A stretch of DNA of 64,000 bases from Candidatus Omnitrophota bacterium (GTDB taxonomy: Bacteria > Omnitrophota > Gorgyraeia > Zapsychrales > Zapsychraceae): positions 15,448 through 79,447 of the forward strand of contig JAJDCB010000029.1 of the NCBI GenBank assembly GCA_029261065.1, in the 5' to 3' direction. Within the stretch, counting starts at the first letter, position 1; each line of letters starts with the position of its first letter. Positions 37,953 through 63,109 of the stretch are shown here, in pieces. The translations under genes and the position numbers were made by a program. The notes beneath the pieces are model-generated. The model saw nothing but the letters and a program-made list of their open reading frames with translations. It did not search any database and had not been told where the DNA came from.

Positions 37953-39401
37953 ATGGGTAGTTTTAATAAAAAGAAAAAATTTTCAGAAGTTTTAGCAAAA
38001 GAATCAACGGGTAAATATGTACGGCCTGAAGATTCTAAAATGTATAAACGTTTGATGGATCGCGCGCATAGCGGGGTTTATATTGCTGATGAGCGTGGTT
38101 TAATATTTTATGTCAATGATGCCTTGGTCCGTATGTTGGGCTATAGTTCGCAAAAGGAAATATTGGAACGAAGTCTGATCGAAGTCTTATATGGTAGTCC
38201 TGAGGCTGGTTTTGAATTTTATGATGCCATGGAGGAGCTGGGATTTATTAATGATTATGAAATAGCTAACAAAAAGGCTGATGGTTATGAAATTGTGTTG
38301 TCTGTCACTAGTCATTTTATTCGAGAGGGTGCTGGAAAGGTTAAAGGGGTTGAGGGGATCGTGTATGACAGGACAGAGACAAAGAAGATAGAGAAATCTT
38401 TAACAAAAGAAAAACAAAAATTAGAGGAAATATTAAACCTTGGTGATAAGGTTACAACAATAAGAGAGTTTCAGGAGTTGATTGATTTTGTTGTAGATCG
38501 TATAGCCGTTATTTTAGAGGCGAGGGTTTGTTCGATCCTATTGGTTGATGAGAACAGCGGAACCCTTAAGATTGCAGGGGCATTTGGTCTTGATAAGGAA
38601 ATTATTGAGAAAACAGAAATTAGTGTGGGCGATCCGATAGCCGGTGTTGTCGCTAAAGATTTAATTCCTATCTTAGTTAAAAATATTGAATACGACGAAC
38701 GTTTTAAACGCGCCAATCGTGAAGGTTACACCAATCAATCTTTTATGATTGTCCCCATTTTAGTAGGTGATGAGTTATTAGGGGTGATTGATGTAGCTGA
38801 TAAGATTTCGGATGTCTCGATCGGTGCATCATTTGATGAGATCGATCTCAAAATTCTTGCCTCTTTAGCCCGCGAAACAGCTGTTGCCATTGATAATTTA
38901 AAGGTCATCACAGATCTAAATTTACAAACGGTAACAGATCCTTTAACGCGAATATACAATTACAGAAAGTTTTCTGATAGTTTGGAACATGAAATTAAGC
39001 GTCTAGGACGGACCAAGGGCAATTTGTGTGTGATGATGCTCGATCTTGATAATTTTAAATCTTATAACGATAGTTTTGGTCATTTAGAAGGCGATACTCT
39101 TCTAAGAGGTATTGGCGAAATCTTAAGAAAAAATTTACGTGACACAGATATTGTATGTCGTTATGCTGGTGATGAGTTTGTCATAGTCTTACCTGATACT
39201 AACATCGAAGGTCTAAAAGAATCTGCCACTAAAGTTATTCGTGAAGTTTCGGCTCACCCTTTTAAACGTCAGGTTACTGTAAGTTTAGGAGCTGCTCGTT
39301 ATCAAGAGGGAATGACGTCCAATGAGTTGATGCTTAAAGCGGATAAATCACTTTATGAGGCAAAGGAAAAAGGTAAGAATCAGTTTTATATATTAGAGTA
39401 A
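37953..39401 (+). CDS. PAS-GAF-GGDEF signalling protein (diguanylate cyclase, AGDEF variant)
   Basis: PAS region (SGVYIADERGLIFYVNDAL). GAF region. GGDEF domain with RYAGDEF active-site variant and LDLDNFKSYND. Confidence 0.65.
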   Translation: MGSFNKKKKFSEVLAKESTGKYVRPEDSKMYKRLMDRAHSGVYIADERGLIFYVNDALVRMLGYSSQKEILERSLIEVLYGSPEAGFEFYDAMEELGFINDYEIANKKADGYEIVLSVTSHFIREGAGKVKGVEGIVYDRTETKKIEKSLTKEKQKLEEILNLGDKVTTIREFQELIDFVVDRIAVILEARVCSILLVDENSGTLKIAGAFGLDKEIIEKTEISVGDPIAGVVAKDLIPILVKNIEYDERFKRANREGYTNQSFMIVPILVGDELLGVIDVADKISDVSIGASFDEIDLKILASLARETAVAIDNLKVITDLNLQTVTDPLTRIYNYRKFSDSLEHEIKRLGRTKGNLCVMMLDLDNFKSYNDSFGHLEGDTLLRGIGEILRKNLRDTDIVCRYAGDEFVIVLPDTNIEGLKESATKVIREVSAHPFKRQVTVSLGAARYQEGMTSNELMLKADKSLYEAKEKGKNQFYILE

Positions 39402-45372: not shown

Positions 45373-47007
45373 ATGATTTATCAAATTTCTATATCATTTG
45401 TAATGGCTTTTTTGTTCTTTGTGCTCTTTTTTGCTGTTTTTACAAAAGGGGCGCATAGTGCTACATCTAGAACGTTTAATGTGCTGATCTTAAATATGGC
45501 TTTGTGGTCGTTGGCCATCGCGATGTTTTATTTTAGTGAAACGCCTTCCTCTGAGATGTTTTGGACGAATGTCTTATATGTTACAGGTAGTATGATTCCC
45601 TCCTCATTTTATCAATTTTCTTTTATTTTTCCTTTTGGTTCTGTCGCCATTTCTCGCTTTAAACGATTTATGATATTTGTTCCAAATATTATATTGTTTG
45701 GGCTGTTCTTTTTTACACCTTGGATGGTCAAAGATATTGTTGTCATTGATGGTGTTAAAAATTTTATATATGGGCCCGCGGGTTTTTTATTTAATATTCA
45801 ATTTATTGTTACTTTTTTTCTCGCCTATTTAAGATTGTTTCCTTTAATGAATACTTCTTCTGGTGTTTTAACCAGCCGACTGCGTTATATTATTTTTGCA
45901 TCTCTCTCAGGTGTTATTCTTGCCGGAACCACCAACGTGATTATGCCAGCATTAGGACGTTTTGAAATGGTGTGGTTGGGACCACCATTAACGATTACGT
46001 GGTTAGTGGGTGTTGTGTATGCGATTCTTAAATATAAAATTATTGATATGCGTTTTATTATTCGACGTAGTCTTATTTATTCGTTTTCAGTAACAATTAT
46101 TTCCGTAACGTTTTTAATTTGTGTTATGACATTTGAGAGGGTGTTTCAAGGCATTGTGGGCTATGAGAACTTTATTGGTTCAACGATTGCAGCTACAATT
46201 ATTGCTTTAATGTTTACGCCTATTAAGAATAAGGTTCAATATTGGATTGATCGCTTGTTTTTTAAGGGATCACAAGTAGAAATTGCTGAACAAAATGTGC
46301 GTCTGCGTGAAGAGATAGCACGGGCTGAGAAATACAAGTCTTTGGCTAACATCGCAAGCGGGGTTGCTCATGAAATCAAAAATCCACTAACAGCCATATA
46401 TACTTTTTCTGAATATTTGCCGCATAAATTACATGATGAGCAGTTTTTGAATAAGTTTTCAAAAATTGTTCATAAAGAGGTTCATCGGATTAATGATTTA
46501 GTTCATCAACTTCTTGAATATGGAAAACCAGCGCCTCTTTGTGAGAAGCAATGCGATGTCAATAAACTCATCGCTGATACGTTGTTGATGTTAAAAAGTA
46601 AGTTTTATGATCGAAATATCCATCTTAAGACAATTTACTCTCATGAAGATTTGTCTATTCAAGTAGATCCCAATCAAATTCGTCAGGCGTTATTAAATGT
46701 TTTACTTAATGCGATAGATGCGATGCCTGAGGGGGGGTATCTTTGGGTTGAAACCAACGTCAATCGTTTACATTTTTGTATATCTATTCGTGATTCTGGT
46801 ATTGGGATTGCTCAAAATCGTTTAACACATATTTTCGAACCTTTTTATACTAAAAAGGATGAGGGGACAGGATTGGGGTTATCTATTACACAGTCCATTA
46901 TAGAAAACCATGAAGGCCGTATAAAAGTTAAAAGCGCCCCAAATGCGGGTGCGGAATTTATCATAGAATTACCACTAGATTTAGATGTTTATAAAGTAGG
47001 TATTTAG
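45373..47007 (+). CDS. sensor histidine kinase with polytopic N-terminal membrane domain
   Basis: About 8-10 TM segments. H-box GVAHEIKNPLTAI. N-box LLNVLLNAIDA. G-boxes RDSGIGI and GTGLGLSI. Confidence 0.7.
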   Translation: MIYQISISFVMAFLFFVLFFAVFTKGAHSATSRTFNVLILNMALWSLAIAMFYFSETPSSEMFWTNVLYVTGSMIPSSFYQFSFIFPFGSVAISRFKRFMIFVPNIILFGLFFFTPWMVKDIVVIDGVKNFIYGPAGFLFNIQFIVTFFLAYLRLFPLMNTSSGVLTSRLRYIIFASLSGVILAGTTNVIMPALGRFEMVWLGPPLTITWLVGVVYAILKYKIIDMRFIIRRSLIYSFSVTIISVTFLICVMTFERVFQGIVGYENFIGSTIAATIIALMFTPIKNKVQYWIDRLFFKGSQVEIAEQNVRLREEIARAEKYKSLANIASGVAHEIKNPLTAIYTFSEYLPHKLHDEQFLNKFSKIVHKEVHRINDLVHQLLEYGKPAPLCEKQCDVNKLIADTLLMLKSKFYDRNIHLKTIYSHEDLSIQVDPNQIRQALLNVLLNAIDAMPEGGYLWVETNVNRLHFCISIRDSGIGIAQNRLTHIFEPFYTKKDEGTGLGLSITQSIIENHEGRIKVKSAPNAGAEFIIELPLDLDVYKVGI

Positions 47008-49499: not shown

Positions 49500-50888
49500 T
49501 TATTCTTTGCGTAAATGGGAGGGGAGGATATTTAGGTTTTGACGATATTTGCTAATGGTACGCCGGGCAATTTTCATGTCCTTCGATTCAAAATAATTTT
49601 GAATTTCTTGGTCAGAAAGAGGTTTGGATTTATTTTCATTCATGATTAAATCCTTTAATTCTTCTTTCATGCTTCTTGAAGAAATATCGCTATTAGCGCA
49701 TTTTGAGAGACCTTGTGAGAAGAAAAATTTTATGGGGAGTAGTCCGTGTGGGGTATCGATATATTTATTGTTTATTGCACGGCTGACGGTTGATTCATTG
49801 CGATCGATGGATTGGGCCACATCTCGAAGAACCATGGGTTTGATGGCAGTTGATCCTTGAAAAAAGAAGTCTCTTTGGTGCTCTAAGATGTAGTTTGCAA
49901 TGTTCTCGATAGTTTGATGACGTTGTTCAATGCTGCGTATAAACAATATTGCATTTTTAATTTTTTCTCTAATAAATTCTTGTTCTTCTTGAGTGCTATT
50001 GGGATTGTGAAGCATTCTTTGATAAATTTTGTTGATACGTAGTTGAGGAACATGTTTTTTGTTAATAGTGACAGTAAAGTTTTTGTTGTCTTCATTTTTT
50101 GTAATAATGATGTCTGGTTTAATGTAAATATTTTCCGTGATGGGACGAAAATTCCTCGCAGGTTTAGGTTCGAGGGAAGCAATAATCTCTGTGAGTTGTT
50201 TGACTTTTTCGATGGAGAGTTTTGTTTTTCTGGCAATATCAGCGTATTTTTTTTTGCTAATTTCAGTTAAAAATTCGGTAATAAGTTTGCTTAGCAAGAT
50301 GCTATTACCATTATATCGATAGAGAACTTGGTTAAGCAAACACTCTTGAAGATTGCGCGAGGCAATGCCTGGTGGATCGAAATTTTGAACTTTACTAAGA
50401 ATTTTCTCAACTAGTGTTATGTTATTGATGTGCAGGGTTTCATTAATCTCTTCACAACTCAATAATAAGTATCCTTCTTCGTTGAGGTTTCCGATTATAA
50501 ATTCTCCTATTTCTAATTCAATGGGATCATCACATTCAAATCGTAACTGCTCGAGCAAATAGTCTTCTAGGGGGGCGCTGCGTGTAATTGGCTTTTGTTC
50601 CATGATTTCATCATCAATGGTGCCATCATAAAAATTTTCAAAAGGGGACTCTTTGATCTGAGATATTCTTTGTTCTATGAGGGCATCAAGAGATTCTTTT
50701 TCAGATAACGTTTTTTCATCGTCAACTTCAAGAAGGGGGTTTTCTTGTAATTCTTGCTCTATGGCAGAGTTTAACTCCGTAATGGGTAGCAACAATATCT
50801 CTATAGATTGCTGCATAATAGGGGCAAGCGTTTGCTTTTGTATTTGTGAGGGCGATAATTTAATTCTCATATGCAAGAAGTATACCAT
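49500..50888 (-). CDS. rpoN: RNA polymerase sigma-54 factor
   Basis: Region I (LSPSQIQKQTLAPIMQQSIEILLLPITEL). Core binding region. C-terminal RpoN box ARRTISKYRQ. Alternative start at 50870 (MRIKL...). Confidence 0.8.
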   Translation of the reverse strand: MVYFLHMRIKLSPSQIQKQTLAPIMQQSIEILLLPITELNSAIEQELQENPLLEVDDEKTLSEKESLDALIEQRISQIKESPFENFYDGTIDDEIMEQKPITRSAPLEDYLLEQLRFECDDPIELEIGEFIIGNLNEEGYLLLSCEEINETLHINNITLVEKILSKVQNFDPPGIASRNLQECLLNQVLYRYNGNSILLSKLITEFLTEISKKKYADIARKTKLSIEKVKQLTEIIASLEPKPARNFRPITENIYIKPDIIITKNEDNKNFTVTINKKHVPQLRINKIYQRMLHNPNSTQEEQEFIREKIKNAILFIRSIEQRHQTIENIANYILEHQRDFFFQGSTAIKPMVLRDVAQSIDRNESTVSRAINNKYIDTPHGLLPIKFFFSQGLSKCANSDISSRSMKEELKDLIMNENKSKPLSDQEIQNYFESKDMKIARRTISKYRQNLNILPSHLRKE

Positions 50889-51104
50889 ATGATATAAAAT
50901 GTAACAAATAATTCTTAGTTCGTAAATTATTCAAATAAAATAAGTTATGTTTAATTTGTGAATTATTATGTTTTAATGTCATATAGCGTTACTGTGACAT
51001 GCTTAGAAAGACTAGGACAACGCAGAAATAGGAGGCTACGCAGGATACTTCTCTATATACTTCTGAATTTAAGTGTAAAAACGCAATTTGGGATGGTGAT
51101 AAAA

Positions 51105-51134
51105 TTGGACAAAGCAGTAAATCATTGCTATAAT
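51105..51134 (+). promoter_or_regulatory. sigma-70-like promoter (TTGGAC-18-TATAAT)
   Basis: ttggac at 51105-51110, 18-nt spacer, tataat at 51129-51134. About 315 nt upstream of the first gene of the EPS locus. Confidence 0.4.
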
Positions 51135-51308
51135 ACGCGTTTCCATGAATGTCCGGGTGTGTCTAGGACAGAGATGTTCAATCTTTTAAACATTGTTACA
51201 AAGCCTGAAAGTCTATGCTTTTTTGTCTCCATAACGCTTAATCTTATAAGTCGTTGCAAATAAAAGCTTTATAATCTTATAAAAAATGAAAATATATCTC
51301 ATCGAATC

Positions 51309-51324
51309 TGGCATGGTATTTGCT
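51309..51324 (+). promoter_or_regulatory. sigma-54 (-24/-12) promoter
   Basis: TGGCATG-GTAT-TTGCT versus consensus TGGCACG-N4-TTGCW. GG at 51310-11 and GC at 51322-23 with exact 10-nt spacing. Points toward the EPS locus; rpoN is the divergent neighbour. Confidence 0.6.
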
Positions 51325-51449
51325 TCATGTAAGGGTATAGATTGTCCTACAGGCTCATAGCCAGTGTTCATCGTAACAATACAGAGTAGCAAAGGATGGA
51401 CATCAGTTAGGAGTAAATATTTCAAAGAGTAAACATAGGAGGAATTAAG

Positions 51450-51635
51450 GTGAAAAAGCGAATGACGATTACCGAAGTAGCAGAAATCGTTGGGATTAGT
51501 CCTAAAACGATTGTACGCTGGGAGAAGGTCGGAAAGGTCAAAAAGGCTAAGCGGGATTGGAGAGGCTGGCGAGTTTATGACGAAGAAGATCTACATGGAA
51601 TTAAATTGTTTCATGAAACAGTGTTTGAAATTTAA
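51450..51635 (+). CDS. small MerR/excisionase-type HTH protein (61 aa)
   Basis: MTITEVAEIVGISPKTIVRWEKVGKV HTH. GTG start 8 nt after AGGAGG. Confidence 0.5.
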   Translation: MKKRMTITEVAEIVGISPKTIVRWEKVGKVKKAKRDWRGWRVYDEEDLHGIKLFHETVFEI

Positions 51636-51668: not shown

Positions 51669-52487
51669 ATGAAAATACTTATAAATAGTATTAAAAATGT
51701 AAGAGTTCTTGTTTTAGCGGGTATGTTTGTAGCCCTTTCAACACATGTGACGAATGCTCAAAATTTTTCTAATTTGAAACCAACGGAAGATCAAGCTGCG
51801 TTGGATGAGCAAATCACACAACAAGAAATTGAACGGATTTTAGCAAATGAAATCTATAGCTCACCTAATACAGGTGAAGTTGGCATAGATTTTAGCGCGA
51901 TGAGCAACTACACGTTGGGAACTAATGATGTGATTGAAATAGCTGTATTAAGACATCCCGAAGTGAGTGGTCAGTATGTTTTAAATTCTGAAGGAAAAAT
52001 ACAATATGATTTTGTTGGAGATGTATCTTTGTCTGGATTAACAAAATCAAAATCAAAAGAAATTATAGCTGAGAAATTATCTTCTTATATTATTTCGCCA
52101 GAGGTGACAGTAAAGATTGTAGGGTATAACAGTAAAGTTGTTTATGTGATTGGTGAGGTTGGACGTCCAGGTAAGGTTTTTATGCGTGGAGATACGATTA
52201 CCGTCAAAGAAGCTCTTATGCAAGCAGGCCTTCCTTTATTATCTGCCAAGATGAAGAAAAGTTCGGTTGTGACACCTTCCGATTCTGGAAAAATGGAAGT
52301 TAAGCCTGTTAATGTACATAAATTGCTTGTAAAGGGTGACTTAAGAGAAAACTTAGTTATGAAGCCAGGTGATACTTTATATTTACCACCAACGGTTATG
52401 ACTAAAGTCATGAGAACGATATCACCTGTTGCTGCTCCTATTGGAACGGCTGCTGGGACTGGACGAACGCTTACGACTGGTTTTTAA
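51669..52487 (+). CDS. polysaccharide export protein (Wza/PEP-CTERM-locus exporter type)
   Basis: Signal peptide. Poly_export motif GTNDVIEIAVLRHPEVSGQYVLNSEGKIQYDFVGDVSLSGLT. SLBB-like region. Confidence 0.7.
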   Translation: MKILINSIKNVRVLVLAGMFVALSTHVTNAQNFSNLKPTEDQAALDEQITQQEIERILANEIYSSPNTGEVGIDFSAMSNYTLGTNDVIEIAVLRHPEVSGQYVLNSEGKIQYDFVGDVSLSGLTKSKSKEIIAEKLSSYIISPEVTVKIVGYNSKVVYVIGEVGRPGKVFMRGDTITVKEALMQAGLPLLSAKMKKSSVVTPSDSGKMEVKPVNVHKLLVKGDLRENLVMKPGDTLYLPPTVMTKVMRTISPVAAPIGTAAGTGRTLTTGF

Positions 52488-52534
52488 TGGTCGTGTTTTT
52501 GAAGTTTAAATATTATTTTTAGAAAGGAAAGATT

Positions 52535-53818
52535 ATGCAATCTTCAGTTGAGAATACAGCAACACCAATGACTTATTTAAAAGTCTTTTTTAGGCGCAAA
52601 GAACTCGTTGTTATTCCTATGTTTGTTGGATTGGTTCTAGGTGTGTGTACAGGAATGACGTTACAAAAGAAATATCGTTCTTCCACTGTTATTTTGGTAG
52701 AAGAAGGAAAAAGTGATAATCCTCTTTTTGACAGGTTGGCTGTATCTACAACTGTTGGCCAAAGGCTTTCTACAATTCGTGAGTCTATGTTGGGTTGGAA
52801 TAGTTTGTTAAAGCTTGTTAAGAGATTAGATATGGATCGAGAAGTTGAAACGGCGCGTGATTTGGAAAATTTAGTTTTAGGGATTAGAAGTAATATCGAC
52901 ATTAAACTTCGTGGGCGTAATATTATCGATTTAGCCTATATGGGAGAAGATCCAGAGCTCACACAGGCTGTTGTTCAAAATATTACAGATATTTTCGTAG
53001 AACGAAATCGTGAGATTCAAGATGAAGAAACTAGTGACGCTATTACATTTATAGAAGAGCAATTAAAGGTGTATCGAGGTAAAGTTAAATCCGGAGAAAT
53101 TGCTGGATTAAAAGATCAGTTAAAGGTTCTTCTGGTTGATTCAACAGACAGTCATCCTCGTGTAAGGCAACTTCGAGAGCAAATAACGGCTAAAGAAAAA
53201 GAATTAAGAGAGCAAAATCTTGATTATACAGAAACGATTGCAGCAGAGTCTCAAAAGTCCAATCCTATTATAAGTGAAATCAAAAATGCTTTAGAAAATA
53301 TAGAAAGCAATTCTTCTTTAGGGAGCCAAGAAGATTCGGAAAAAGAATATTATAAGTTTATGTTAATCAATAAATTAGATAATGTTATGGCTCGTGATGC
53401 GAATGTTAATAATCAGATTTATAACATGCTTTTACAGCGATTGGAGACAGCAAAGATTACGCAACGTTTGCAGGCTTCAAAAGAAGGAACAAAATACACT
53501 GTCCTTGACCCACCCCGAATTCCACTACATCCTGTTAAGCCAAACAAAATATTAGTAGCTCTTTCAGGATTATTTCTTGGAGGCTTATTAGGATTTGGAT
53601 TAGTTTTTGCTACTGAATTTTTAGATAAGTCATTTCTAGATGTAGAAGAAGCCAATGAATATTTAGGTGCTCCACTGTTAGGTGCTATTTCAAAAATTAA
53701 TACAGACACAAGTCTAAAGGAAGCACGTGAGAAAGCTGGTTGGTTTTATGGGTTAACAGCAGTTGTAGGTGTTGTTGTAGTTGTTTTAACCAAGGCTATA
53801 TCAAATTTTATGCAATAA
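52535..53818 (+). CDS. polysaccharide chain-length determinant (Wzz/GumC-like)
   Basis: N-terminal TM, long coiled-coil periplasmic region, C-terminal TM. Proline-containing motif DPPRIPLHPVKPNK preceding TM2. Confidence 0.65.
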   Translation: MQSSVENTATPMTYLKVFFRRKELVVIPMFVGLVLGVCTGMTLQKKYRSSTVILVEEGKSDNPLFDRLAVSTTVGQRLSTIRESMLGWNSLLKLVKRLDMDREVETARDLENLVLGIRSNIDIKLRGRNIIDLAYMGEDPELTQAVVQNITDIFVERNREIQDEETSDAITFIEEQLKVYRGKVKSGEIAGLKDQLKVLLVDSTDSHPRVRQLREQITAKEKELREQNLDYTETIAAESQKSNPIISEIKNALENIESNSSLGSQEDSEKEYYKFMLINKLDNVMARDANVNNQIYNMLLQRLETAKITQRLQASKEGTKYTVLDPPRIPLHPVKPNKILVALSGLFLGGLLGFGLVFATEFLDKSFLDVEEANEYLGAPLLGAISKINTDTSLKEAREKAGWFYGLTAVVGVVVVVLTKAISNFMQ

Positions 53819-53857
53819 AAGATTAAGTCGTTATTATTATCAGGAACAGGTGATTAT

Positions 53858-54709
53858 ATGTATCAAAACTTTTACGGATTTAAAGAGCCTCCATTTAACT
53901 TAACACCAAACTCAAAGTTTTTCTTTTCAAGCGAAAAACATACAGAGGCGTTAAGTACCTTATTATATGCTATTAACCAGAGAAAAGGTTTTGTAGTTAT
54001 AACAGGTCACATTGGTTCTGGAAAAACGACAGTATGTCGTGCGTTGATAAATCAACTTGATAAGAATACACAAACAGCGCTTATCACAAATACGCATATG
54101 AGCGGAAAAGATTTGTTGATGGCAATTTTGGAAGATTTGGAAGTTGATTTTGTTCCTGGCTCTAAATCGAAATTGCATTCTCAGCTAAATACTTATCTTA
54201 TTGAACAACTTCGTAGAAATAACAACGTGGTTCTTATCATTGATGAAGCTCAAAATTTGACGCCATCCGTATTAGAAGAGGTGCGAATGTTATCCAATTT
54301 AGAAACGGAGAATGAAAAGCTGATACAAATTCTTTTTATAGGACAACCTGAGCTAAAGAAAAAGTTGGCTCTTCCAAGGTTAGAACAGTTGCGTCAACGT
54401 ATAGCTGTTTATTTCCAGTTAACGCCTTTGGATTTCAAAGATGCTAAAAATTACATTTTGCATCGTCTTAAAGTAGCCAGTGGCAGCAATAAAGTTTTTT
54501 TTACGGATACGGCTATTGAAATGATTTATCAATTTTCAAAAGGGATTCCTCGTTTGATAAATCAAATATGCGACAGCGCATTTTTAACAGGGTATATCGC
54601 TGAGGTTAAGTTGATTGATGAGAAAATAATGGAAGAAGTTATTAATGAATCGCCTATGAAACAAATAGGTGGTAGAGAATTAGAGAACACAAACGAAATT
54701 TCCGTATAA
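53858..54709 (+). CDS. AAA ATPase, ExeA-like (TIGR03015 PEP-CTERM-locus secretion ATPase type)
   Basis: Walker A ITGHIGSGKTT. Walker B VVLIIDEAQNL. Confidence 0.65.
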   Translation: MYQNFYGFKEPPFNLTPNSKFFFSSEKHTEALSTLLYAINQRKGFVVITGHIGSGKTTVCRALINQLDKNTQTALITNTHMSGKDLLMAILEDLEVDFVPGSKSKLHSQLNTYLIEQLRRNNNVVLIIDEAQNLTPSVLEEVRMLSNLETENEKLIQILFIGQPELKKKLALPRLEQLRQRIAVYFQLTPLDFKDAKNYILHRLKVASGSNKVFFTDTAIEMIYQFSKGIPRLINQICDSAFLTGYIAEVKLIDEKIMEEVINESPMKQIGGRELENTNEISV

Positions 54710-54725
54710 ACGAAGAAGGTGAATA

Positions 54726-55133
54726 ATGATGAAAAATTTTCCTATTGATAATCAGATGTTTTGGACAGATGAGTTAAGAGATGACGTATTTGAGTTATGG
54801 AGAACGTCCTTGATGTTTTTTAATAAAGCTTGTGAATTGACTAAACAATTTCCAAAAAACGTTCCTTTTGATATTGATATTCAAGTTCGGGAGGCGTCAT
54901 TTACAATTTCTGAAAAGATTGCTAAAGCATCAAAGGCCGATGACATTGAGATTTATCAGGATTACTTAATGGACTCTGTAGATGCTATTCATAATGCCTT
55001 AGCAAAAATGTATATTGCTAATAAATGGGGATACATGAGGCTTGACAATTATATTGAAACCCATAGTCAAGCAAGACGTTTGGCCGCTCAAATTAAAGAG
55101 TTGATGTGGTTTCATGGGTTACAAGTTGCTTAA
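54726..55133 (+). CDS. hypothetical protein (possible four-helix-bundle family)
   Basis: 135 aa, helical, no clear motif. Confidence 0.25.
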   Translation: MMKNFPIDNQMFWTDELRDDVFELWRTSLMFFNKACELTKQFPKNVPFDIDIQVREASFTISEKIAKASKADDIEIYQDYLMDSVDAIHNALAKMYIANKWGYMRLDNYIETHSQARRLAAQIKELMWFHGLQVA

Positions 55134-55158
55134 ATAATAGGGAAAGAAGGTATAAAAA

Positions 55159-55761
55159 ATGAGTAAGATGTTGAAGTTATTACTAAAGACAAACAAAGAG
55201 ACGCAGATAGAGAAGAAAGATGCTCTTGTTTTAAATGAGGGTGCCGTGACTATCGCTCAGGCATCGTTGCAATCTAAAGGGTATTCTATAAATCATATTT
55301 CTTTTGTTTTTAATATTTTTATTGCGCTCATTGTTTTGCTGACATTTAAATCTAATTATCGCATTTTAGAACAATTATCTTCAAATCAGATTTCAGCATC
55401 ACAGATGCATGAAAACATTGCTTATCAAAAATCACAAATATTAAAAATGGAATCGAATCTTTTGGGGTTTGAAAATGAGAAAAAGACTAGTCAAAGAAGT
55501 ACAAATTTACGAATATCAGCTTTGAATGAAAAAGAAAAGATAATTGAAAATAATTTGAAAAATTTATCAAAGGACCAACGATTGACTAAAGATACAGCCA
55601 TGAATTTGAAATTATCCAATCAATTGCTGGTTACTAAGCTAACATCTGTAAATCAAGAACTTAAAGCATTAAGTCAAACATATGATGAGCAACAGGGAAG
55701 CCTTGAGCAATTGCATAAAAGGTTAACTCGATTGAGTGAGTCTAAGGAGGAGTTAGAATAA
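55159..55761 (+). CDS. coiled-coil protein with N-terminal TM anchor
   Basis: One hydrophobic helix (FVFNIFIALIVLLTF), then heptad-rich sequence. Confidence 0.3.
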   Translation: MSKMLKLLLKTNKETQIEKKDALVLNEGAVTIAQASLQSKGYSINHISFVFNIFIALIVLLTFKSNYRILEQLSSNQISASQMHENIAYQKSQILKMESNLLGFENEKKTSQRSTNLRISALNEKEKIIENNLKNLSKDQRLTKDTAMNLKLSNQLLVTKLTSVNQELKALSQTYDEQQGSLEQLHKRLTRLSESKEELE

Positions 55762-56549
55762 TGGGTAAAATAACTAAGGCACTAAAAAAGGCAACAGAAG
55801 ATAGGCTAGGGCGAATTGAAAAAATTACAAAAATAAAAGAAAGAGATCAACTCATTGTTAAAAAGATTGGTGAATCCGAAATTGATCCTAATATTGTTTC
55901 TTATTTTGATCCTAAAGCGCTAATATCAGAGCAATATAAAATATTAAGAACAAACATTCTTTCGATGAATAAGGGTAGACCTCCTAGAACTCTTGTTATC
56001 ACAAGTTCGATTCACTCTGAAGGAAAAACGGTGACATCGTTAAATTTGGCTTTCTCACTTGCTCAAGCGGTTCATAAACCTCGTGTCCTTTTGGTAGATG
56101 CGGATATGAGAAAGGGAAAGGTGTCAAGGTACTTAGGTGTAGATAATAAAGAAGGTTTATCTGAAGTCTTAAGTGGACAGCGTAAAGCGAGTGAAACATT
56201 ATTTCATATAGCAGATCAACCAAACTTAACATTTATGGATTCGGGATCAGTTCCTGAAAATCCATCAGAGTTACTTTCTTCAAATGAAATGAAAGAATTT
56301 ATCACAGAGATGGAATCAAACTATGATCATATACTTATAGATACACCACCCATTATTTCTGTAACTGACTCAGGCATTGTTGGAGCGATGGTTGATGGTG
56401 TCATTATGGTCATTCAAGCGGGACGTACTCAACGCGGTATTGTTAAACGAGCTGAAGAGCTTTTGTTTCAAGCGCATTCAAAAGTATTGGGACATGTATT
56501 AACAAACATTGAGTATCATTTACCTGAATATATATACAGGTACCTATAA
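55761..56549 (+). CDS. BY-kinase (exopolysaccharide tyrosine autokinase, cytoplasmic catalytic subunit)
   Basis: Walker A SSIHSEGKT. Walker A' VLLVDADMRKG. Walker B ILIDTPP. C-terminal Tyr cluster EYHLPEYIYRYL. Confidence 0.7.
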   Translation: MGKITKALKKATEDRLGRIEKITKIKERDQLIVKKIGESEIDPNIVSYFDPKALISEQYKILRTNILSMNKGRPPRTLVITSSIHSEGKTVTSLNLAFSLAQAVHKPRVLLVDADMRKGKVSRYLGVDNKEGLSEVLSGQRKASETLFHIADQPNLTFMDSGSVPENPSELLSSNEMKEFITEMESNYDHILIDTPPIISVTDSGIVGAMVDGVIMVIQAGRTQRGIVKRAEELLFQAHSKVLGHVLTNIEYHLPEYIYRYL

Positions 56550-56713
56550 TATTGGAATTGCTGGTCATAATTTTAGATATTATGATCAAAAAGCTCCCAG
56601 AGTTTATAGGAACTGACATTTTGCTCAACTAAGAGATTTTACTAGAGCCTTAATGTTGGGGACAAAAACTCTGGGATTTTTGTAAATACAAGTAAAAGAA
56701 AGGAAGAGGAAAA

Positions 56714-57667
56714 ATGAAGAAGTTTTTAATTGCAGGTGGAGCAGGATTTATTGGGTCAAATATTGCAGAGTATCTTATAAAGGAAGGACATTATGTTAGA
56801 GTCTTAGATAATTTCTTTTCAGGTAAAGAAGAGAATCTTGATTTTGCTAAAGGTCTAGGAAAAGATAAATTTGAGCTTATTCGAGGTGACATTCGGGATA
56901 TAGATGCTTGTGAGAAAGCGTGTGAAGGTATTGATTATATTTCTCTTCAAGCTGCGTTACGTTCAGTACCTCAATCAATGGTTAATCCAGAAGATTATAA
57001 TGATGTGAACATCAATGGTGTTTTAACGATGTTAAAAGCAGCCTCTAAGAAGAAGGTGAAACGTCTTGTGTTTGCCTCTTCAAGTTCTGTTTATGGAGAT
57101 ACAGATAAGTTTCCACAAGTCGAATCTCATTATCCTCTTTTGATTTCTCCTTATGCGTTAAGTAAATTAGCAGGCGAGTACTATTGCCGTATTTTTTCAG
57201 AGCATTTTAATGTGGAAACAGTCTGTTTAAGATATTTTAACGTTTTTGGTCCTAAACAAGCATTAGATGATGAATATGCCGTTGTTGTGCCAAAGTTTAC
57301 ACACAGTATTTTAAACGATGAAAAACCACCCGTATTTGGAAATGGTGAACAATCACGGGATTTTACTTTTATTGAGAATGTTGTGTCAGCTAATGTTCTC
57401 GCAGCAACAACTCCCGGCATTAAACATGAAGTGTTTAATGTGGCAAATGGAAAAGACACATCAATTTTAGAACTCATCGCATCTTTAAATAAAATTATTG
57501 GAAAAAATATAGAGCCAAATTTGTTGCCGGTTCGTGCAGGTGATGTTTTTAAAACGCATGCTGATATTTCCAAGATTCAAGAAAAGCTTGGGTTTAAGGT
57601 TTTGTTTAATTTTGAGGAAGGCTTAGAGAAGACAGTAGCTTATTTTAAAGAAGCATTTGGAAAATAA
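56714..57667 (+). CDS. NAD-dependent sugar-nucleotide 4-epimerase (SDR; WbpP/GalE-like)
   Basis: GGAGFIGSN Rossmann motif. Catalytic YALSKLAGE. Confidence 0.75.
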   Translation: MKKFLIAGGAGFIGSNIAEYLIKEGHYVRVLDNFFSGKEENLDFAKGLGKDKFELIRGDIRDIDACEKACEGIDYISLQAALRSVPQSMVNPEDYNDVNINGVLTMLKAASKKKVKRLVFASSSSVYGDTDKFPQVESHYPLLISPYALSKLAGEYYCRIFSEHFNVETVCLRYFNVFGPKQALDDEYAVVVPKFTHSILNDEKPPVFGNGEQSRDFTFIENVVSANVLAATTPGIKHEVFNVANGKDTSILELIASLNKIIGKNIEPNLLPVRAGDVFKTHADISKIQEKLGFKVLFNFEEGLEKTVAYFKEAFGK

Positions 57668-58715
57668 AAAGCTATTGATTCATAAAACAAAAATGCAAGG
57701 CATGAAATCATTTATCAAATTGTGTGTTTGTTATGTGCTTTTTTATTCAGGAGCCATGCATTTATATATAAAAGGTGTCCTGTTAAAAAGAAATCGGTTT
57801 CCTGCTCTTATCATAAACTATCATAGCTTTGTAAAGAGTTTAGAGAACGTGATGGAGACACATCCAACAGTCACACATTTGATAGATGACTTTGAAAAAG
57901 AAGTCATCTTTCTTAAAAAATATTTTGATATTGTGTCTTTAAGTGAAGTTGTAGATACATTAAAAGAAGAAAAAGTGTTTTTAAAACCGACCATTGTCAT
58001 TACGGTTGATGACGGCTTTAAAGATAACTTTGATTTGCTTTTTCCTGTTTTAGAAAAACACAATATTTCTGTAACGATCTTTCTCTCAACTGGGGTTATT
58101 AATACGAATAAGCGATTGTGGGTTAATCGATTAGATCAAATGATTGGGCAAGCCAAAGGGGGAGAGCTTAATCTTAATAATTTGTTTAATAATCAGAGAT
58201 TTACGTTGCAGTCAGTAGATGAGAAACGAGAGGCCTATAAGCAAATAGTGGGTGCTTTAAAAGATGTCAAGATAGAACAGCGAGATGAAAGCCTTAAGGA
58301 CATTGAAAAACAGTTAGGTTCGCCTAATGAGAATAAGCCTTTAATGTTAAGTTGGGATGAGATAAAGCTGATGAATGAATCGCTTGTTGAGTTTGGAGCG
58401 CATACTGTTAACCATCCCATTTTAACAAGTGTATCTTTATCTGAAGCTCAGCAAGAAATATTTGATTCGAAGTTGGAAATTGAAAAACATCTTAAAAAAG
58501 AAGTTAAACATTTTGCCTTTCCAAATGGCCGGCCTCAGGATTTTTCGGAAGAATTAAGAGATTATTGCAAGGAAATAGGTTTTCAAAGTGTGAGTAGTTG
58601 TGATTTTGGAGTTAATATAAAAAAAGTTGATAATTTCAATCTTAAAAGAGTAGGATCTGAAGTTCCTATGAGTTTGTACGCGTTTAATGTTGTTCGTGTA
58701 TTTTCTAAAATTTGA
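57657..58715 (+). CDS. polysaccharide deacetylase (NodB-homology; PEP-CTERM-locus subfamily-like)
   Basis: TVDDGFKDNFD (NodB motif 1). HTVNHPIL (His motif). N-terminal signal-anchor. TTG start; alternative ATG at 57693. Confidence 0.6.
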   Translation: MENKKLLIHKTKMQGMKSFIKLCVCYVLFYSGAMHLYIKGVLLKRNRFPALIINYHSFVKSLENVMETHPTVTHLIDDFEKEVIFLKKYFDIVSLSEVVDTLKEEKVFLKPTIVITVDDGFKDNFDLLFPVLEKHNISVTIFLSTGVINTNKRLWVNRLDQMIGQAKGGELNLNNLFNNQRFTLQSVDEKREAYKQIVGALKDVKIEQRDESLKDIEKQLGSPNENKPLMLSWDEIKLMNESLVEFGAHTVNHPILTSVSLSEAQQEIFDSKLEIEKHLKKEVKHFAFPNGRPQDFSEELRDYCKEIGFQSVSSCDFGVNIKKVDNFNLKRVGSEVPMSLYAFNVVRVFSKI

Positions 58716-58731
58716 GTTTTAGGTTTTTACA

Positions 58732-61053
58732 ATGAATATAAAAAGTCAAAAAAATAATGTTAGTGCTGTTGTTTTAGGAATGGGTGTGAATGGTCTTGGA
58801 GTGGTGCGCAGTTTATCGAAGGAAGGGGTTAAAGTCTATGCCTTTGATGAAGATAGAAATCAACCAGCCATGGCCACTTCTTTAGCTGTCGTTAAAGAAT
58901 GTCCTGATGTTAAACATCAAGCTAAGGCATTATTAACGTTTTTGATAGAGTTTTCAAAATCAGAAGGTAACTGTCCTGTCCTATTTCCATGCACTGATGC
59001 TCATAATGAGTTTCTTCATCGTTATCGTGATCAACTCAAAGAATATTTTCGATTTATTAACTCTGAGGATGAGGTGATGAAGAAATTGTTAGATAAAAAT
59101 GGTCAATATCAATTAGCACAAGAACATAATGTCGCAACAGCTAAAACTTTTAGTCCAAAGTCCATTGAAGAGATAGATGCCATTTCAAAAAAAATACAAT
59201 TTCCTGTGATTATTAAGGGTTTAAATCCTATGCCATGGAGAGCCGTTTTTGGAGATCAAAAGGTAATTGTTATTAAAAACGCAAAAGAGTTAACAGATGA
59301 ATATCTAAAATTATTTAAAACAAATTTACATACGGTTATACAAGAGATAATTGTTGGAGATGATACGCGGCATTATAAATTTTGTGCCTACATTAATAAA
59401 GATGGAAAGGCTCTTTTAACTTTTACTCTTCAAAAAGTAAGACAATTTCCGTGTCATTTTGGAATCGGTTCCTGTGTCGTAAGTGTATTTGAACCTGAGG
59501 TTGCTGAGAAAGGATTGCAGTTTATGCGTGATATGGGCTATCGAGGCATCGGTTCCATTGAGTTTAAGCGAGATAAGAGGGATGAAAAATTAAAGATGAT
59601 TGAGCTCAATGCTCGATTATGGGCTCAAAATAGTTTAGCGACGGCCTGTGGTCAAAATTATCCATGGGTTGCTTATCGTGATTTAATCGGAGAAGAAGTG
59701 CCTTTGAGTTCAAAGTTTAAAGAAGGCATTAAATGGATTGCCTCTAAAGAAGATCGGGCTTCCTTTTATGGTTATTTTAGGGAAGGGTCGATGAGTTTTA
59801 AAACATGGTTTAAAAGTTTTTGTACAGGGAGGAGAGTTTGGTCCTTATTTAATTGGGATGATCCAATGCCATTTTTAAAAGAGACTAAATTTGGATTTAT
59901 TGTGTTTATAAAGGTATTTAAAAAATTTATTGGGGTCTTTAACCAAAAGCAAACGAACAAAATAAATCAATTTGGAAATCTACATTTGCATGTGATTCAA
60001 GGTTGGGATGAGTTTTTTAGTTTACGTAAAGAATGGAATGATATTTTAGACAACAATCACATCTCAAATCCTTTTATAAGACATGAATGGTTATGTTCAT
60101 GGTGGAAAGGTTATGGGGCAGAGAAAAAAATGTACATTGTTAAATTTAGCGAAAATGGTCGAACTTTAGGTTTTGCGCCATTGATGAGATATAAAACAAA
60201 ATTATGCTCTTTTCCAACAGAAGCACTTGGATTTATTTCGAATCATTGGACTAGGATGGACTTTGTTATTGCTGATAAAGCTAAAGAATGCATGGAAAGT
60301 TTAGCTGAGCACATTAAATCTGAAAAATATATATGTATATTAGCTCAAATGGATTGCGAGGGTGAAAATGTTAATGTTTTGGAAAAGCAGCTAAAGAAAA
60401 ATAGAATTTCTTTTACTAAAGATGAAAAATTGCATGCTTATATTCCTGTAAAAGGGGCTTGGCGTGAATACTTTCAAAGTCAATCATCTAATTTTAGGAT
60501 GGATTCCAATAGGAAAATTAAACGATTAGAAAAGCAGGGTGAGATTGTTTTCTCAAGAGGGTTATCAAAAAATGGAACTTCTGTAGATAAAATAAGAGAA
60601 GTTGCTCAAAATTCTTGGCAATCAAGAGATAACGTGAATATCGTAACGACACCAGAAGGGCGCGTTTTTTATGATGAGATTATTAAGCAGTGGAAAGGCG
60701 AAGGTAGGCTTGATTTTTCTATTCTTGAAGTTGATGGAAAACCAATTTCCTATTTAGTAGGTGTGGAAAATGAAGGTTGCTACTATGCATTTGATACCGC
60801 GTATGATAAAGAGTTTCAGAAATTTTCTCCAGGACTAATTATGCATAATCATATTCTTAAGAATACATTTGATAAGGGCTTGAAAAAATTTGATTTTGGC
60901 TATAACGCTAGTTATAAAAAGCGTTGGTCAGAAGAACAAATAGAGATGTTAGACATAACTGTTTTTCCTAAGACATTGGGAGGACAGTTTTTTTTAATTT
61001 TGAATACAATAAAAAGATTTATTAAACGAAGAAAGGAAGAACGTATATGTTAA
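58732..61053 (+). CDS. fusion: ATP-grasp ligase domain / FemAB-CelD-like (TIGR03019-type) acyltransferase domain
   Basis: N-terminal about 380 aa with ATP-grasp pattern (FPVIIKGLNP, IQEIIVGDD, ELNARLW). C-terminal about 370 aa with FemAB/CelD-like motifs (WDEFFSLRKEWNDIL...NPFIRHEWL, FDFGYN). Confidence 0.55.
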   Translation: MNIKSQKNNVSAVVLGMGVNGLGVVRSLSKEGVKVYAFDEDRNQPAMATSLAVVKECPDVKHQAKALLTFLIEFSKSEGNCPVLFPCTDAHNEFLHRYRDQLKEYFRFINSEDEVMKKLLDKNGQYQLAQEHNVATAKTFSPKSIEEIDAISKKIQFPVIIKGLNPMPWRAVFGDQKVIVIKNAKELTDEYLKLFKTNLHTVIQEIIVGDDTRHYKFCAYINKDGKALLTFTLQKVRQFPCHFGIGSCVVSVFEPEVAEKGLQFMRDMGYRGIGSIEFKRDKRDEKLKMIELNARLWAQNSLATACGQNYPWVAYRDLIGEEVPLSSKFKEGIKWIASKEDRASFYGYFREGSMSFKTWFKSFCTGRRVWSLFNWDDPMPFLKETKFGFIVFIKVFKKFIGVFNQKQTNKINQFGNLHLHVIQGWDEFFSLRKEWNDILDNNHISNPFIRHEWLCSWWKGYGAEKKMYIVKFSENGRTLGFAPLMRYKTKLCSFPTEALGFISNHWTRMDFVIADKAKECMESLAEHIKSEKYICILAQMDCEGENVNVLEKQLKKNRISFTKDEKLHAYIPVKGAWREYFQSQSSNFRMDSNRKIKRLEKQGEIVFSRGLSKNGTSVDKIREVAQNSWQSRDNVNIVTTPEGRVFYDEIIKQWKGEGRLDFSILEVDGKPISYLVGVENEGCYYAFDTAYDKEFQKFSPGLIMHNHILKNTFDKGLKKFDFGYNASYKKRWSEEQIEMLDITVFPKTLGGQFFLILNTIKRFIKRRKEERIC

Positions 61054-61823
61054 TGCCATTATTTAAATATCGAGATTTATTAGCAATGCTTGTGGTGCGT
61101 GATATACGCGTGAGATATAAGCAGGCGGCGATGGGGTTTATGTGGGCCATTTTTATGCCTATGGTTGCTGTGTTAGCAGGTATTATCGTAAAAAAGGCAA
61201 TGGCCGTTATCTCGGGAGGTGATTTAGAACTTTTAGGAATTGTTTCTATGTCGGTTAAGATATTGCCATGGACATTTTTCTCAAGTGCTATTCGTTTTTC
61301 AGTTTCAAGTTTGGTGTCTAACAGTAATCTTGTTACCAAAATATATTTTCCAAGAGAGGTTCTTCCCTTAGGAGCGATCTTGGCTTGTACGTTTGATTTT
61401 CTAGTAGCTATTTTAGTTCTTTGTGTCCTTTTAACGATGGCACAGGTTGGTGTGAGTATACAGCTCTTGTGGTTGCCTTTTATCTTTCTTATGCTGTTTT
61501 GTTTAACAGCGGGATTAGGGTTTTTGTTGGCCGCGGCTAACTTGTTTTTTAGGGATGTAAAATATATTGTTGAGATCATTTTAACGTTTGGTATCTTTTT
61601 TACTCCTGTATTTTATAGCTCGGATGAATTAGGGCAATACGGTATATTTATGTTACTCAATCCCATTGGAAGTATATTAGAATCAATTAGTCAAGTTGTT
61701 GTCCTTAAGCAAGCTCCAGATATGTTGTGGCTTTTATATTCTTCTGTTTGTTCGATAGCCATATTTATTTTTGGGTTTATTATTTTTAAAAAGAAAGAAT
61801 CTGTATTCGCTGAGAATATTTAA
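61047..61823 (+). CDS. ABC-2 type polysaccharide exporter permease (Wzm-like)
   Basis: 6 TM segments, ABC-2 pattern. Overlaps the upstream gene by 7 nt. Confidence 0.7.
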   Translation: MLMPLFKYRDLLAMLVVRDIRVRYKQAAMGFMWAIFMPMVAVLAGIIVKKAMAVISGGDLELLGIVSMSVKILPWTFFSSAIRFSVSSLVSNSNLVTKIYFPREVLPLGAILACTFDFLVAILVLCVLLTMAQVGVSIQLLWLPFIFLMLFCLTAGLGFLLAAANLFFRDVKYIVEIILTFGIFFTPVFYSSDELGQYGIFMLLNPIGSILESISQVVVLKQAPDMLWLLYSSVCSIAIFIFGFIIFKKKESVFAENI

Positions 61824-61864
61824 ATACAACTATTTTGTAAATAAGAAAGAATGGAGTCGATTAT

Positions 61865-63109
61865 ATGAAATATGCAATAGAATTTAATCATGCATGGAAG
61901 AAGTTTAAAAAAGGGGAGAAATTTGATTCTCTTCGAGATGCCGTGCCGAACTTTTTTAAAAATATTATTAAACCAAAAAAATCTACTGAGGATTTAACTG
62001 ATCGTGAATTCTGGGCTGTGCGCGATGTCGATTTTCAGGTCAAAAAGGGAGAGGTTGTTGGGATTATTGGTCCAAATGGTGCTGGTAAAAGTACAATCTT
62101 AAAGATGCTCTCAGGGATCCTTATTCCTAATAAAGGTGACATGAAAATACACGGTCGGCTTTCTGCCCTTATTGAGGTAACAGCGGGATTTCACCCAGAA
62201 TTAACGGGTCGGGAAAATGTTTATCTCAATGGAACTATTTTGGGTATGAAGAAAAAGGAATTAGATGCCAAGTTTGAAGATATTGTTGAGTTCTCAGGCA
62301 TAAGAGAATTTATCGACACACCTGTTAAACGTTATTCTTCGGGGATGTATTCCCGTTTAGGTTTTTCCGTTGCGGCTCATGTTAATCCTGATGTATTGCT
62401 TGTTGATGAAGTTTTAGCCGTTGGTGACATCTCCTTTCAGGCGAAATGCGCACAAAAAATGCGTGAGATGTTAAAAAGTGGCGTCACAATTGCGATTGTT
62501 TCTCATAGCTTACCGCTGATTCAAAGTTTATGCGAACGTGTTATTTTAATTGATAAGGGGCAAGTGCTCAAGGAAGGAAGTCCAGAGGAAGTAATTCCGT
62601 TTTATGAAAAGATTGTTTTTAATCAACAAGAAGAAGAGCTTAAGAATAAACTAAAAAAATCGACCTTTAAGGTTGCACCAACAGACAATAAGCCTTTAAT
62701 TACCATTAATAAAGTTGATATAATTGATGGAAAAGGTGAATCAAAAGATGACTTTCCTTTTGGCTCAAATTTAACAATAAATGTGGAATATAATGCCGAT
62801 AAGAAAATTGAAAAACCAGTATTCTCTTTAGTCCTTTTTCGCTCAGATGGCGTTGTATGTTTTGAATCTGATACAAAACGCAGAGGGGTGTCTGTTGAAA
62901 GTATTGAAGGAAAGGGTAAATATATTGCCCAATTAGGTGAGCTTAAGTTGTCACCTGGAATTTATATTCTTCAGCTATCTATTCTTGATAGAGATTTGGT
63001 CCATCCGTATGTCATTAGGAAAGAAGATGTTTTTAAAATTGAAACAGACAGTGTTCACAAACAAACATCCTCCGTGTTTTGGAAGGATGTTGAGTGGAGA
63101 ATGAATTAA
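61865..63109 (+). CDS. ABC transporter ATP-binding protein (Wzt-like, with C-terminal substrate-binding extension)
   Basis: Walker A GPNGAGKST. Signature YSSGMYSRLGFS. Walker B LLVDEVLAVGD. About 170-aa C-terminal beta-rich extension. Confidence 0.75.
   Translation: MKYAIEFNHAWKKFKKGEKFDSLRDAVPNFFKNIIKPKKSTEDLTDREFWAVRDVDFQVKKGEVVGIIGPNGAGKSTILKMLSGILIPNKGDMKIHGRLSALIEVTAGFHPELTGRENVYLNGTILGMKKKELDAKFEDIVEFSGIREFIDTPVKRYSSGMYSRLGFSVAAHVNPDVLLVDEVLAVGDISFQAKCAQKMREMLKSGVTIAIVSHSLPLIQSLCERVILIDKGQVLKEGSPEEVIPFYEKIVFNQQEEELKNKLKKSTFKVAPTDNKPLITINKVDIIDGKGESKDDFPFGSNLTINVEYNADKKIEKPVFSLVLFRSDGVVCFESDTKRRGVSVESIEGKGKYIAQLGELKLSPGIYILQLSILDRDLVHPYVIRKEDVFKIETDSVHKQTSSVFWKDVEWRMN

Follow-up and report, generated by a model that had tools for sequence, protein, structure and literature searches.

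The 64,000-nt stretch of DNA analysed here (the window), which comes from a member of Candidatus Omnitrophota, very probably carries a genuine sigma-54 (RpoN)-dependent promoter at positions 51309–51324, heading the genes for a small helix–turn–helix (HTH) protein, a Wza-like exporter and an extracellular polysaccharide (EPS) locus. This promoter would be switched on by an activator bound to a conserved upstream block and acting through DNA looping, with a probable bend at an integration host factor (IHF)-like element, and transcription of the HTH–wza/EPS genes would start near 51335. The elements of this control region, in window positions, are as follows.

51309–51324, forward strand: sigma-54 promoter, with the −24 element TGGCATG and the −12 element TTGCT (GG at 51310–51311, GC at 51322–51323).
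51150–51192, no strand assigned: conserved enhancer-like block, a putative upstream activating sequence, reading TGTCCgGGTgTGTCtaGGACAgagATGTTcaATCTTTTAAACA (from nhmmer and the block alignment A2).
51150–51153, 51160–51163, 51167–51170, 51174–51178 and 51184–51192: elements of the block, respectively TGTC, TGTC, GACA, ATGTT and TTTTAAACA.
51211–51213: weaker additional (T)GTC.
51245–51271, forward strand: IHF-like bending element, centred near −70, with TnTAA at 51245–51249 and the core AATAAAAGCTTTA at 51259–51271.

The first-pass annotation of this DNA, made from the sequence alone, had called a TGGCATG-N4-TTGCT box with exact GG-N10-GC spacing and one mismatch, and the sequence is as it claimed: positions 51309–51324 read TGGCATGgtatTTGCT (also given as TGGCATGGTATTTGCT) on the forward strand, differing from the reference box TGGCACG-N4-TTGCW by a single C-to-T change. 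The box lies inside a 560-bp intergenic region, and its end is 126 nt from the GTG start codon (51450) of the HTH gene, in agreement with the annotated order of a MerR-type HTH gene about 125 nt downstream (Pfam MerR_1), followed by a Wza-like exporter gene (Pfam Poly_export and SLBB). Because transcription usually starts 12 nt after the GC, the start is predicted near 51334–51336 (about 51335).

No other site on either strand of the window matches the reference with at most one mismatch. Shuffling that preserved dinucleotides (n = 100) gave an expectation of 0.41 such boxes per window, with at least one in 36 of the 100 shuffles, and the window contains five boxes at two mismatches compared with 5.3 expected; the four two-mismatch boxes elsewhere in the window are all inside open reading frames (ORFs). 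From the window alone, the explanation that the box is a functionless chance match in AT-rich intergenic DNA could thus not be rejected. It is excluded by the comparison of 73 related loci together with a weight-matrix scan, and its probability is negligible.

For this comparison, 80 metagenome loci were retrieved with protein patterns of the small HTH gene as the sole criterion, the promoter having no part in their selection, and three genome loci, whose host is Candidatus Omnitrophota, were fetched via the Wza-like protein (55–65% identity). Among 73 non-redundant upstream regions of 300 nt each from these related loci, 66 contained the box on the forward strand with at most two mismatches (17 perfect, 32 with one mismatch), compared with none of the 73 on the opposite strand and 4 of 66 stretches of equal-length downstream DNA. 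The box thus recurs at the same place and on the same strand in independent loci, beginning at a median of 100 nt before the start codon. All three genome loci keep the box despite the divergence of their Wza-like proteins, and in one of them, L004, it is perfect. In a family alignment of the control region from 45 loci, the TGGCA and TTGCT columns were nearly invariant while the adjacent intergenic columns carried almost no information, indicating selection rather than recent ancestry; the clade consensus is TGGCAYG-N4-TTGCT. A sigma-54 weight matrix trained on 64 other loci, with the window left out, gave the box 27.5 bits (training range 16.5–28.7), whereas the next best of about 128,000 window positions scored 10.5 bits, 17 bits lower, and the scan found no further sigma-54 promoters in the window. 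Furthermore, the HTH gene has rpoN as its divergent neighbour in 61 related loci. The proposal in the first-pass annotation of a functional sigma-54 promoter heading the HTH–wza/EPS genes, divergent from rpoN and with an activator expected elsewhere in the genome, is thus strongly supported by phylogenetic footprinting.

The block at 51150–51192 occurs once in the window, and nhmmer found it in about 59–65 related loci, on the forward strand every time. In alignment A2, 49 distinct sequences align over 77 columns with zero gaps, 9 columns being invariant and 17 nearly invariant. The block is placed at about −185 to −143 from the predicted start, with two sub-sites centred near −175 and −151. 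Its distance to the −24 box is 95–105 nt in 50 of 59 loci and 88–91 nt in seven; the two spacing classes (about 100 nt and about 89 nt) are one helical turn apart, suggesting a constraint of DNA geometry typical of enhancer–promoter looping. The conserved theme consists of TGTC/GACA half-sites, part of them at 10-bp spacing, and is retained in more distant loci. Judged by this conservation and geometry, the block is the likely activator site. No match was found between the TGTC/GACA pattern and verifiable known activator sites; likeness to a PilR-type TGTC site received no confirmation from a literature search and is an unverified lead.

Two related loci depart from the usual arrangement. Locus L058 carries five direct TGTC copies at 10–11 bp and one GACA about 47–250 nt upstream of the HTH gene, supporting TGTC as a recognised half-site, and its sigma-54 box is degenerate. 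In L026 (1243–3001), the block and the sigma-54 box stand about 1.75 kb upstream of the HTH gene, and two extra ORFs (1371–1922 and 1984–2901) lie in between.

Between the block and the promoter, the sequence is suggestive of an IHF-like bend site. The core AATAAAAGCTTTA is one mismatch from the IHF core WATCAANNNNTTR, both TnTAA (51245–51249) and AA-N4-TT (51263–51270) are conserved in the 45-locus alignment, and in about 24 of 60 loci the best IHF-like matches bunch 48–53 nt upstream of the TGG. The core is flanked by a repeat peculiar to this genome.

51239–51249 and 51272–51282, forward strand: two exact copies of TAATCTTATAA, 33 bp apart, flanking the IHF-like core.

In the first-pass annotation these copies, whose starts precede the box by 70 and 37 nt and which have no other exact counterpart in the window, had been put forward as possible IHF or activator sites. 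They are real, they flank the IHF-like element, and their length of 11 nt exceeds that of repeats in shuffled sequence (mean 6.3, maximum 9). The other loci, however, hold only chance-level repeats of 6–7 nt with no common sequence, so the pair is not a conserved element; it was rejected as a conserved activator site and is not the enhancer, for which the block at 51150–51192 is the likely place.

Several points weigh against a sigma-54 promoter organised in this way. A one-mismatch match in 64 kb is by itself not significant, and about 7 of the 73 loci, including L003, have a weak box at best. The IHF-like element is weak, reaching at most one mismatch in just 13 of 60 loci, and no IHF or HU gene was found in the window. 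The first-pass annotation had also stated that the window contains no activator, and this agrees with our searches: GAFTGA, ESELFGH and GESGTGK gave nothing in the six frames of the window, Pfam revealed no sigma-54 activator among all its large ORFs, and none was found in about 11 kb of flanking DNA (about 7.6 kb past the downstream end and 3.1 kb past the upstream end). Likewise, the surroundings of the HTH gene in 83 related loci, searched to a distance of about 3 kb, yielded no gene for an enhancer-binding protein. The required activator is thus only postulated. Finally, transcription of the operon could also come from a near-consensus sigma-70 promoter, which lies 175 bp upstream.

51106–51134, forward strand: sigma-70-type promoter (TGGACA, 17 nt, TATAAT, with a TG extension), predicted start near 51141.

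This promoter matches the consensus at 11 of 12 positions and has an extended −10 element. It points into the operon from a place directly upstream of the block, and 17 of 48 loci have a similar promoter at the corresponding alignment position, compared with 3 and 6 of 48 in controls. The operon might accordingly be transcribed mainly from 51106–51134, the sigma-54 box being secondary or conditional, or a site of bound, inactive polymerase that modulates read-through. We consider this rather unlikely. At that place a sigma-70 promoter can be recognised in only one third of the loci, whereas 90% keep the sigma-54 box. Across the family alignment, only ACA, TAA and TTG of the sigma-70 promoter are conserved, and the −10 positions A2 and T6 are not. 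In addition, a protein on the block would cover +9 to +52 from that start and would obstruct transcription. The sigma-70 promoter is a lineage-variable feature, and it may provide basal read-through that a protein on the block could obstruct.

The same promoter bears on another reading, in which the block acts in RNA rather than as a DNA site, being the 5′ part of either a small RNA or a structured leader. In favour of this, the block includes two short inverted repeats, and in one third of the loci it is preceded, at a distance of 14–15 nt, by the end of a sigma-70 promoter. However, neither candidate stem (TGTCC/GGACA or ATGTT/AACAT) shows compensatory change, and pairing at their variable positions is lost in 16–22 of the 49 sequences; covariation in the block equals that of shuffled controls, and the RNAalifold consensus reaches just −1.76 kcal/mol. 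No consistent hairpin or terminator was found after the block (mean minimum free energy −6.8 vs −5.9 for shuffles). Rfam gave nothing at the gathering threshold on the 560-bp intergenic region, the sole match in the window being a tRNA elsewhere, and only a meaningless snoRNA match (E = 1.9) for this region in E-value mode. Fixed helical-phase spacing to a promoter is, moreover, a property of DNA. The block was thus rejected as an RNA hairpin pair, and an origin of its conservation in RNA is highly improbable.

Downstream of the sigma-54 promoter, the window contains the following genes.

51450–51635, forward strand: MerR/BldC-like winged-HTH gene (61 amino acids), first of the transcription unit, with a GTG start and the Shine–Dalgarno sequence AGGAGG at 51438–51443.
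51669–52487, forward strand: gene for the Wza-like polysaccharide export protein, with a signal peptide (Pfam Poly_export and SLBB).
52535–63109, forward strand: rest of the EPS locus, co-directional (assigned with Pfam and NCBIfam).

The HTH protein scores 43 bits on Pfam MerR_1 (cut-off 21.6), also matches MerR, and has no coiled coil or effector domain. Its profile has as closest solved relatives the N-terminal domains of MerR proteins and the 71–72-residue “putative DNA-binding protein” chains 6ama/6amk (E about 3e-6), which we take to be BldC. Of 417 homologues, all those with a source name come from Candidatus Omnitrophota. Small BldC-type proteins likewise consist of about 60–70 residues forming a MerR N-terminal winged HTH that lacks a coiled coil and an effector domain. 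In contrast to them, the present protein scores below the NCBIfam HTH_BldC cut-off (27.6 vs 77 bits), is encoded by the first gene of a putative sigma-54 EPS operon, and is fused to the exporter in some relatives. In the loci L070 (1604–2659), L078 (637–1650) and L081 (1138–2223), and also in L079 and L080, a single in-frame ORF encodes both the HTH and the Wza-like Poly_export/SLBB protein, joined by one hydrophobic segment after which comes an AXA-like site, and the sigma-54 box is kept upstream. Such fusions would have a ToxR-like, membrane-tethered topology.

BldC binds head-to-tail to direct repeats. The block might thus be the operator of the BldC-like protein of the operon, which would bind head-to-tail to the TGTC repeats at 10-bp spacing and exert positive or negative feedback, the sigma-54 promoter still being real. 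This is possible, though we hold it to be the lesser likelihood. The direct TGTC copies at 10-bp spacing (columns 17 and 27 of alignment A2), the five at 10–11 bp in L058, the resemblance of the protein to 6ama/6amk with HTH_BldC among its NCBIfam matches, and the failure to find an activator with a DNA-binding domain nearby all speak for it. The block and the HTH gene also invariably occur together, but this co-occurrence is built in, as the loci were selected through the HTH gene. Furthermore, the position at −185 to −143, the helical-turn spacing and the IHF-like element in between form the textbook geometry of an activator and its enhancer, and the BldC score falls well short of its cut-off. 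In relatives with the exporter fusion, the HTH would be tethered to the membrane, so that binding at a promoter-distal site would be possible but less simple.

Returning to an enhancer bound by a separate activator, we propose the following course of events. The sigma-54 holoenzyme, with sigma-54 supplied by the adjoining rpoN, would occupy the −24 GG and −12 GC elements and be held there as a closed complex. An AAA+ activator of the NtrC family, encoded elsewhere in the genome, would bind the TGTC/GACA block at 51150–51192 and reach the polymerase by DNA looping, probably aided by the IHF-like bend near −70. ATP hydrolysis by the activator would then open the promoter, so that transcription in vivo would depend on sigma-54 and start near 51335. 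The transcript would comprise a leader of about 115 nt, the BldC-like MerR HTH protein, the Wza-like exporter and, probably, the downstream EPS genes.

These co-directional genes, which would bring the transcribed locus to about 20 kb, encode at 52535–63109 a Wzz/GNVR chain-length protein, an AAA_22 ATPase, a 23S-IVP-like protein, a coiled-coil protein, a tyrosine autokinase, an epimerase, a deacetylase, an ATP-grasp/GNAT protein and a Wzm/Wzt ABC transporter. Beyond the end of the window, the flank (L085) continues with further co-directional genes, including six glycosyltransferase genes. A terminator-like hairpin with a T-run (52472–52495, forward strand) overlaps the wza stop codon and may cause partial termination after HTH–wza; the count of such hairpins in the region is not above that in shuffles. 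The promoter may accordingly serve the whole locus or chiefly the HTH–wza pair. The 23S rRNA intervening-sequence-type protein (PF05635; 54726–55133, forward strand) is encoded between the AAA_22 ATPase and the coiled-coil protein.

On the other side of the control region stand rpoN and its own promoter.

49500–50870, reverse strand: rpoN (sigma-54), with a probable ATG at 50870–50868 (MRIKLSPSQ...).
50872–50912, reverse strand: rpoN promoter, with the −35 element TTGTTA at 50907–50902, a 17-nt spacer and the extended −10 element TGGTATACT at 50887–50879.

RpoN is complete, with the Pfam domains Sigma54 AID, CBD and DBD, a TIGR02395 score of 391 bits (cut-off 277) and the RpoN box ARRTISKYR. 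These matches bear out the divergently transcribed rpoN that had been placed at 49500–50888 as an ORF, although its start is probably the ATG at 50870. The extended −10 element lies 8 nt (7–9 nt) before this ATG, and no Shine–Dalgarno sequence is present, suggesting that the rpoN mRNA is probably leaderless. The same bases, TGGTATACTTCTTGCA (50887–50872, reverse strand), also fit a sigma-54 box with GG-N10-GC spacing (TGGTAT-N5-TTGC), which scores just 7.5 bits on the local sigma-54 matrix. Across 41 non-redundant loci, the rpoN promoter has the consensus TaTGGTATACTTctTGC and a layout of an A-rich stretch, a TTTGnn −35 element, a 17-nt spacer, TGGTATACT, TCTTGC(A/T)(T) and the ATG. In these loci, GG and TTGC of the box were both present in 35, both absent in three, and reduced to GG in three, while TTGC without GG was found in none. 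As insertions and deletions between the box and the ATG do not come in lengths divisible by three, coding does not account for the conservation of the box.

This overlap suggests that the sigma-54 holoenzyme occupies the promoter of its own gene, and rpoN may thereby be repressed or autoregulated by its product. Negative autoregulation of rpoN is known in rhizobia and occurs in other organisms too. A report for Rhizobium leguminosarum is cited in PMC3538637, and the present arrangement resembles the case cited there in that a sigma-54-type box on the sigma-70 promoter of rpoN would let the holoenzyme shut off its own gene. The predicted box of the present genome differs in coinciding with the extended −10 element and abutting the start codon of a probably leaderless mRNA.

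The proposed organisation resembles that of the classical sigma-54 promoters that depend on an enhancer, where an activator site lies upstream and IHF bends the DNA, such as glnAp2/NtrC, nifH/NifA and Pu/XylR. The −24 GG and −12 GC elements with TGGCAY-N5-TTGCT, the helically phased block of several half-sites about 100–150 bp upstream, the putative A/T-rich IHF-like element in between and the tight linkage to a complete rpoN are the points of likeness. In contrast to the classical systems, however, rpoN itself is here the conserved divergent neighbour, the activator is only postulated, and the host belongs to an uncultivated phylum. No mapped sigma-54 promoter of Omnitrophota was found in the literature searched.

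One candidate for the missing signal input lies beyond rpoN.

45373–47007, forward strand: orphan membrane histidine kinase (544 amino acids) with a long hydrophobic N-terminal half.

The catalytic core of this kinase is closest to AtoS (NCBIfam, 4e-67) and ZraS (1.6e-63), and no response regulator is encoded next to it. AtoS and ZraS are partners of NtrC-type sigma-54 activators. The kinase is, speculatively, a candidate sensor for the activator of the promoter at 51309–51324.

Sigma-54 control of EPS-associated genes is also a feature of the PEP-CTERM/PrsR system. In Haft et al. (2006; PMC1569441), a sigma-54 motif and an upstream motif 1 are described as preceding genes for PEP-CTERM proteins in Proteobacteria, together with PrsK, PrsR and PrsT; motif 1 has 17 nt, ends in TTTACA and lies about 63 nt upstream of the sigma-54 motif. 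For pepA, dependence on RpoN has been shown experimentally (PMC9850573). The two systems have in common an upstream motif combined with a −24/−12 box, and the motif ends in both in a T-rich stretch followed by ACA (TTTACA there, TTTAAACA here). In contrast, with motif 1 compared by its description only, the present block is about 45 nt long, lies about 116 nt upstream of the box and precedes HTH–wza; the genes headed there encode single PEP-CTERM proteins, whereas here an export operon is headed.

The first-pass annotation had linked the locus to the PEP-CTERM type. XrtA-associated NCBIfam models are indeed the best or near-best for four proteins of the locus, but all four score below the trusted cut-offs: the chain-length protein (242.7 vs 278.9), the ATPase (297.1 vs 324.5), the tyrosine kinase (147.2 vs 230.7) and the exporter (93.6 bits vs 180 on TIGR03027 pepcterm_export). 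No exosortase (EpsH/XrtA) or PEP-CTERM Pfam match was found among the scanned ORFs of the window (nearly all of those of at least 110 amino acids) or the Pfam labels of the flanking genes. On PrsK, the kinase reaches 100 bits compared with 300, through its catalytic core only; on PrsT, the TPR protein reaches 27.8 compared with 312; and no PrsR was found in the locus. A PrsK/PrsR system was thus rejected. Of the earlier link, the closeness to XrtA-associated families stands, while membership of the PEP-CTERM type does not.

Omnitrophota are widespread, mostly uncultivated and very small bacteria, and, to our knowledge, their gene regulation is essentially unstudied. The promoter element itself is ordinary; the rpoN/HTH–wza arrangement is kept across many uncultivated Omnitrophota. 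The locus gives the phylum a testable regulatory unit composed of the TGGCAYG-N4-TTGCT consensus, a defined enhancer sequence and the conserved rpoN/HTH–wza arrangement. It leads to the prediction that export of envelope polysaccharide is under tight, signal-dependent on/off control, which would matter for attachment, aggregation or host association of Omnitrophota, and the enhancer sequence could be used to find the activator and the remaining regulon in complete genomes. As the type of mechanism is textbook, the value lies in the annotation and the entry point that it provides rather than in a new principle. What makes the findings moderately interesting is that the element is conserved throughout the phylum and tightly coupled to rpoN, together with the observations on the rpoN promoter and the HTH fusions.

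A more far-reaching reading, which we regard as doubtful, would join these observations into a self-contained, phylum-wide cassette of rpoN and its main target. A leaderless sigma-70 promoter of rpoN, whose extended −10 element doubles as a sigma-54 box, would let sigma-54 throttle its own synthesis; about 400 bp away, the sigma-54 promoter would fire the EPS export operon from an enhancer of TGTC repeats; and the BldC-like mini-MerR protein, which is the first product of that operon and is fused to the exporter through a transmembrane segment in some lineages, would be the enhancer-binding or adaptor component that couples export status at the envelope to promoter activity, as a ToxR-like membrane-tethered regulator.

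Two further genes of the window were noted. A PAS–GAF–GGDEF diguanylate cyclase is encoded at 37953–39401 (forward strand), 12 kb upstream of the EPS locus and amid glycosyltransferase genes, and could provide a cyclic di-GMP input to EPS control. At 23563–25656 (forward strand), a 697-residue ORF combines porphobilinogen deaminase, uroporphyrinogen methyltransferase (TP_methylase) and uroporphyrinogen-III synthase domains; a two-mismatch sigma-54-like match (23525–23540) lies just upstream of it, inside the preceding ORF.

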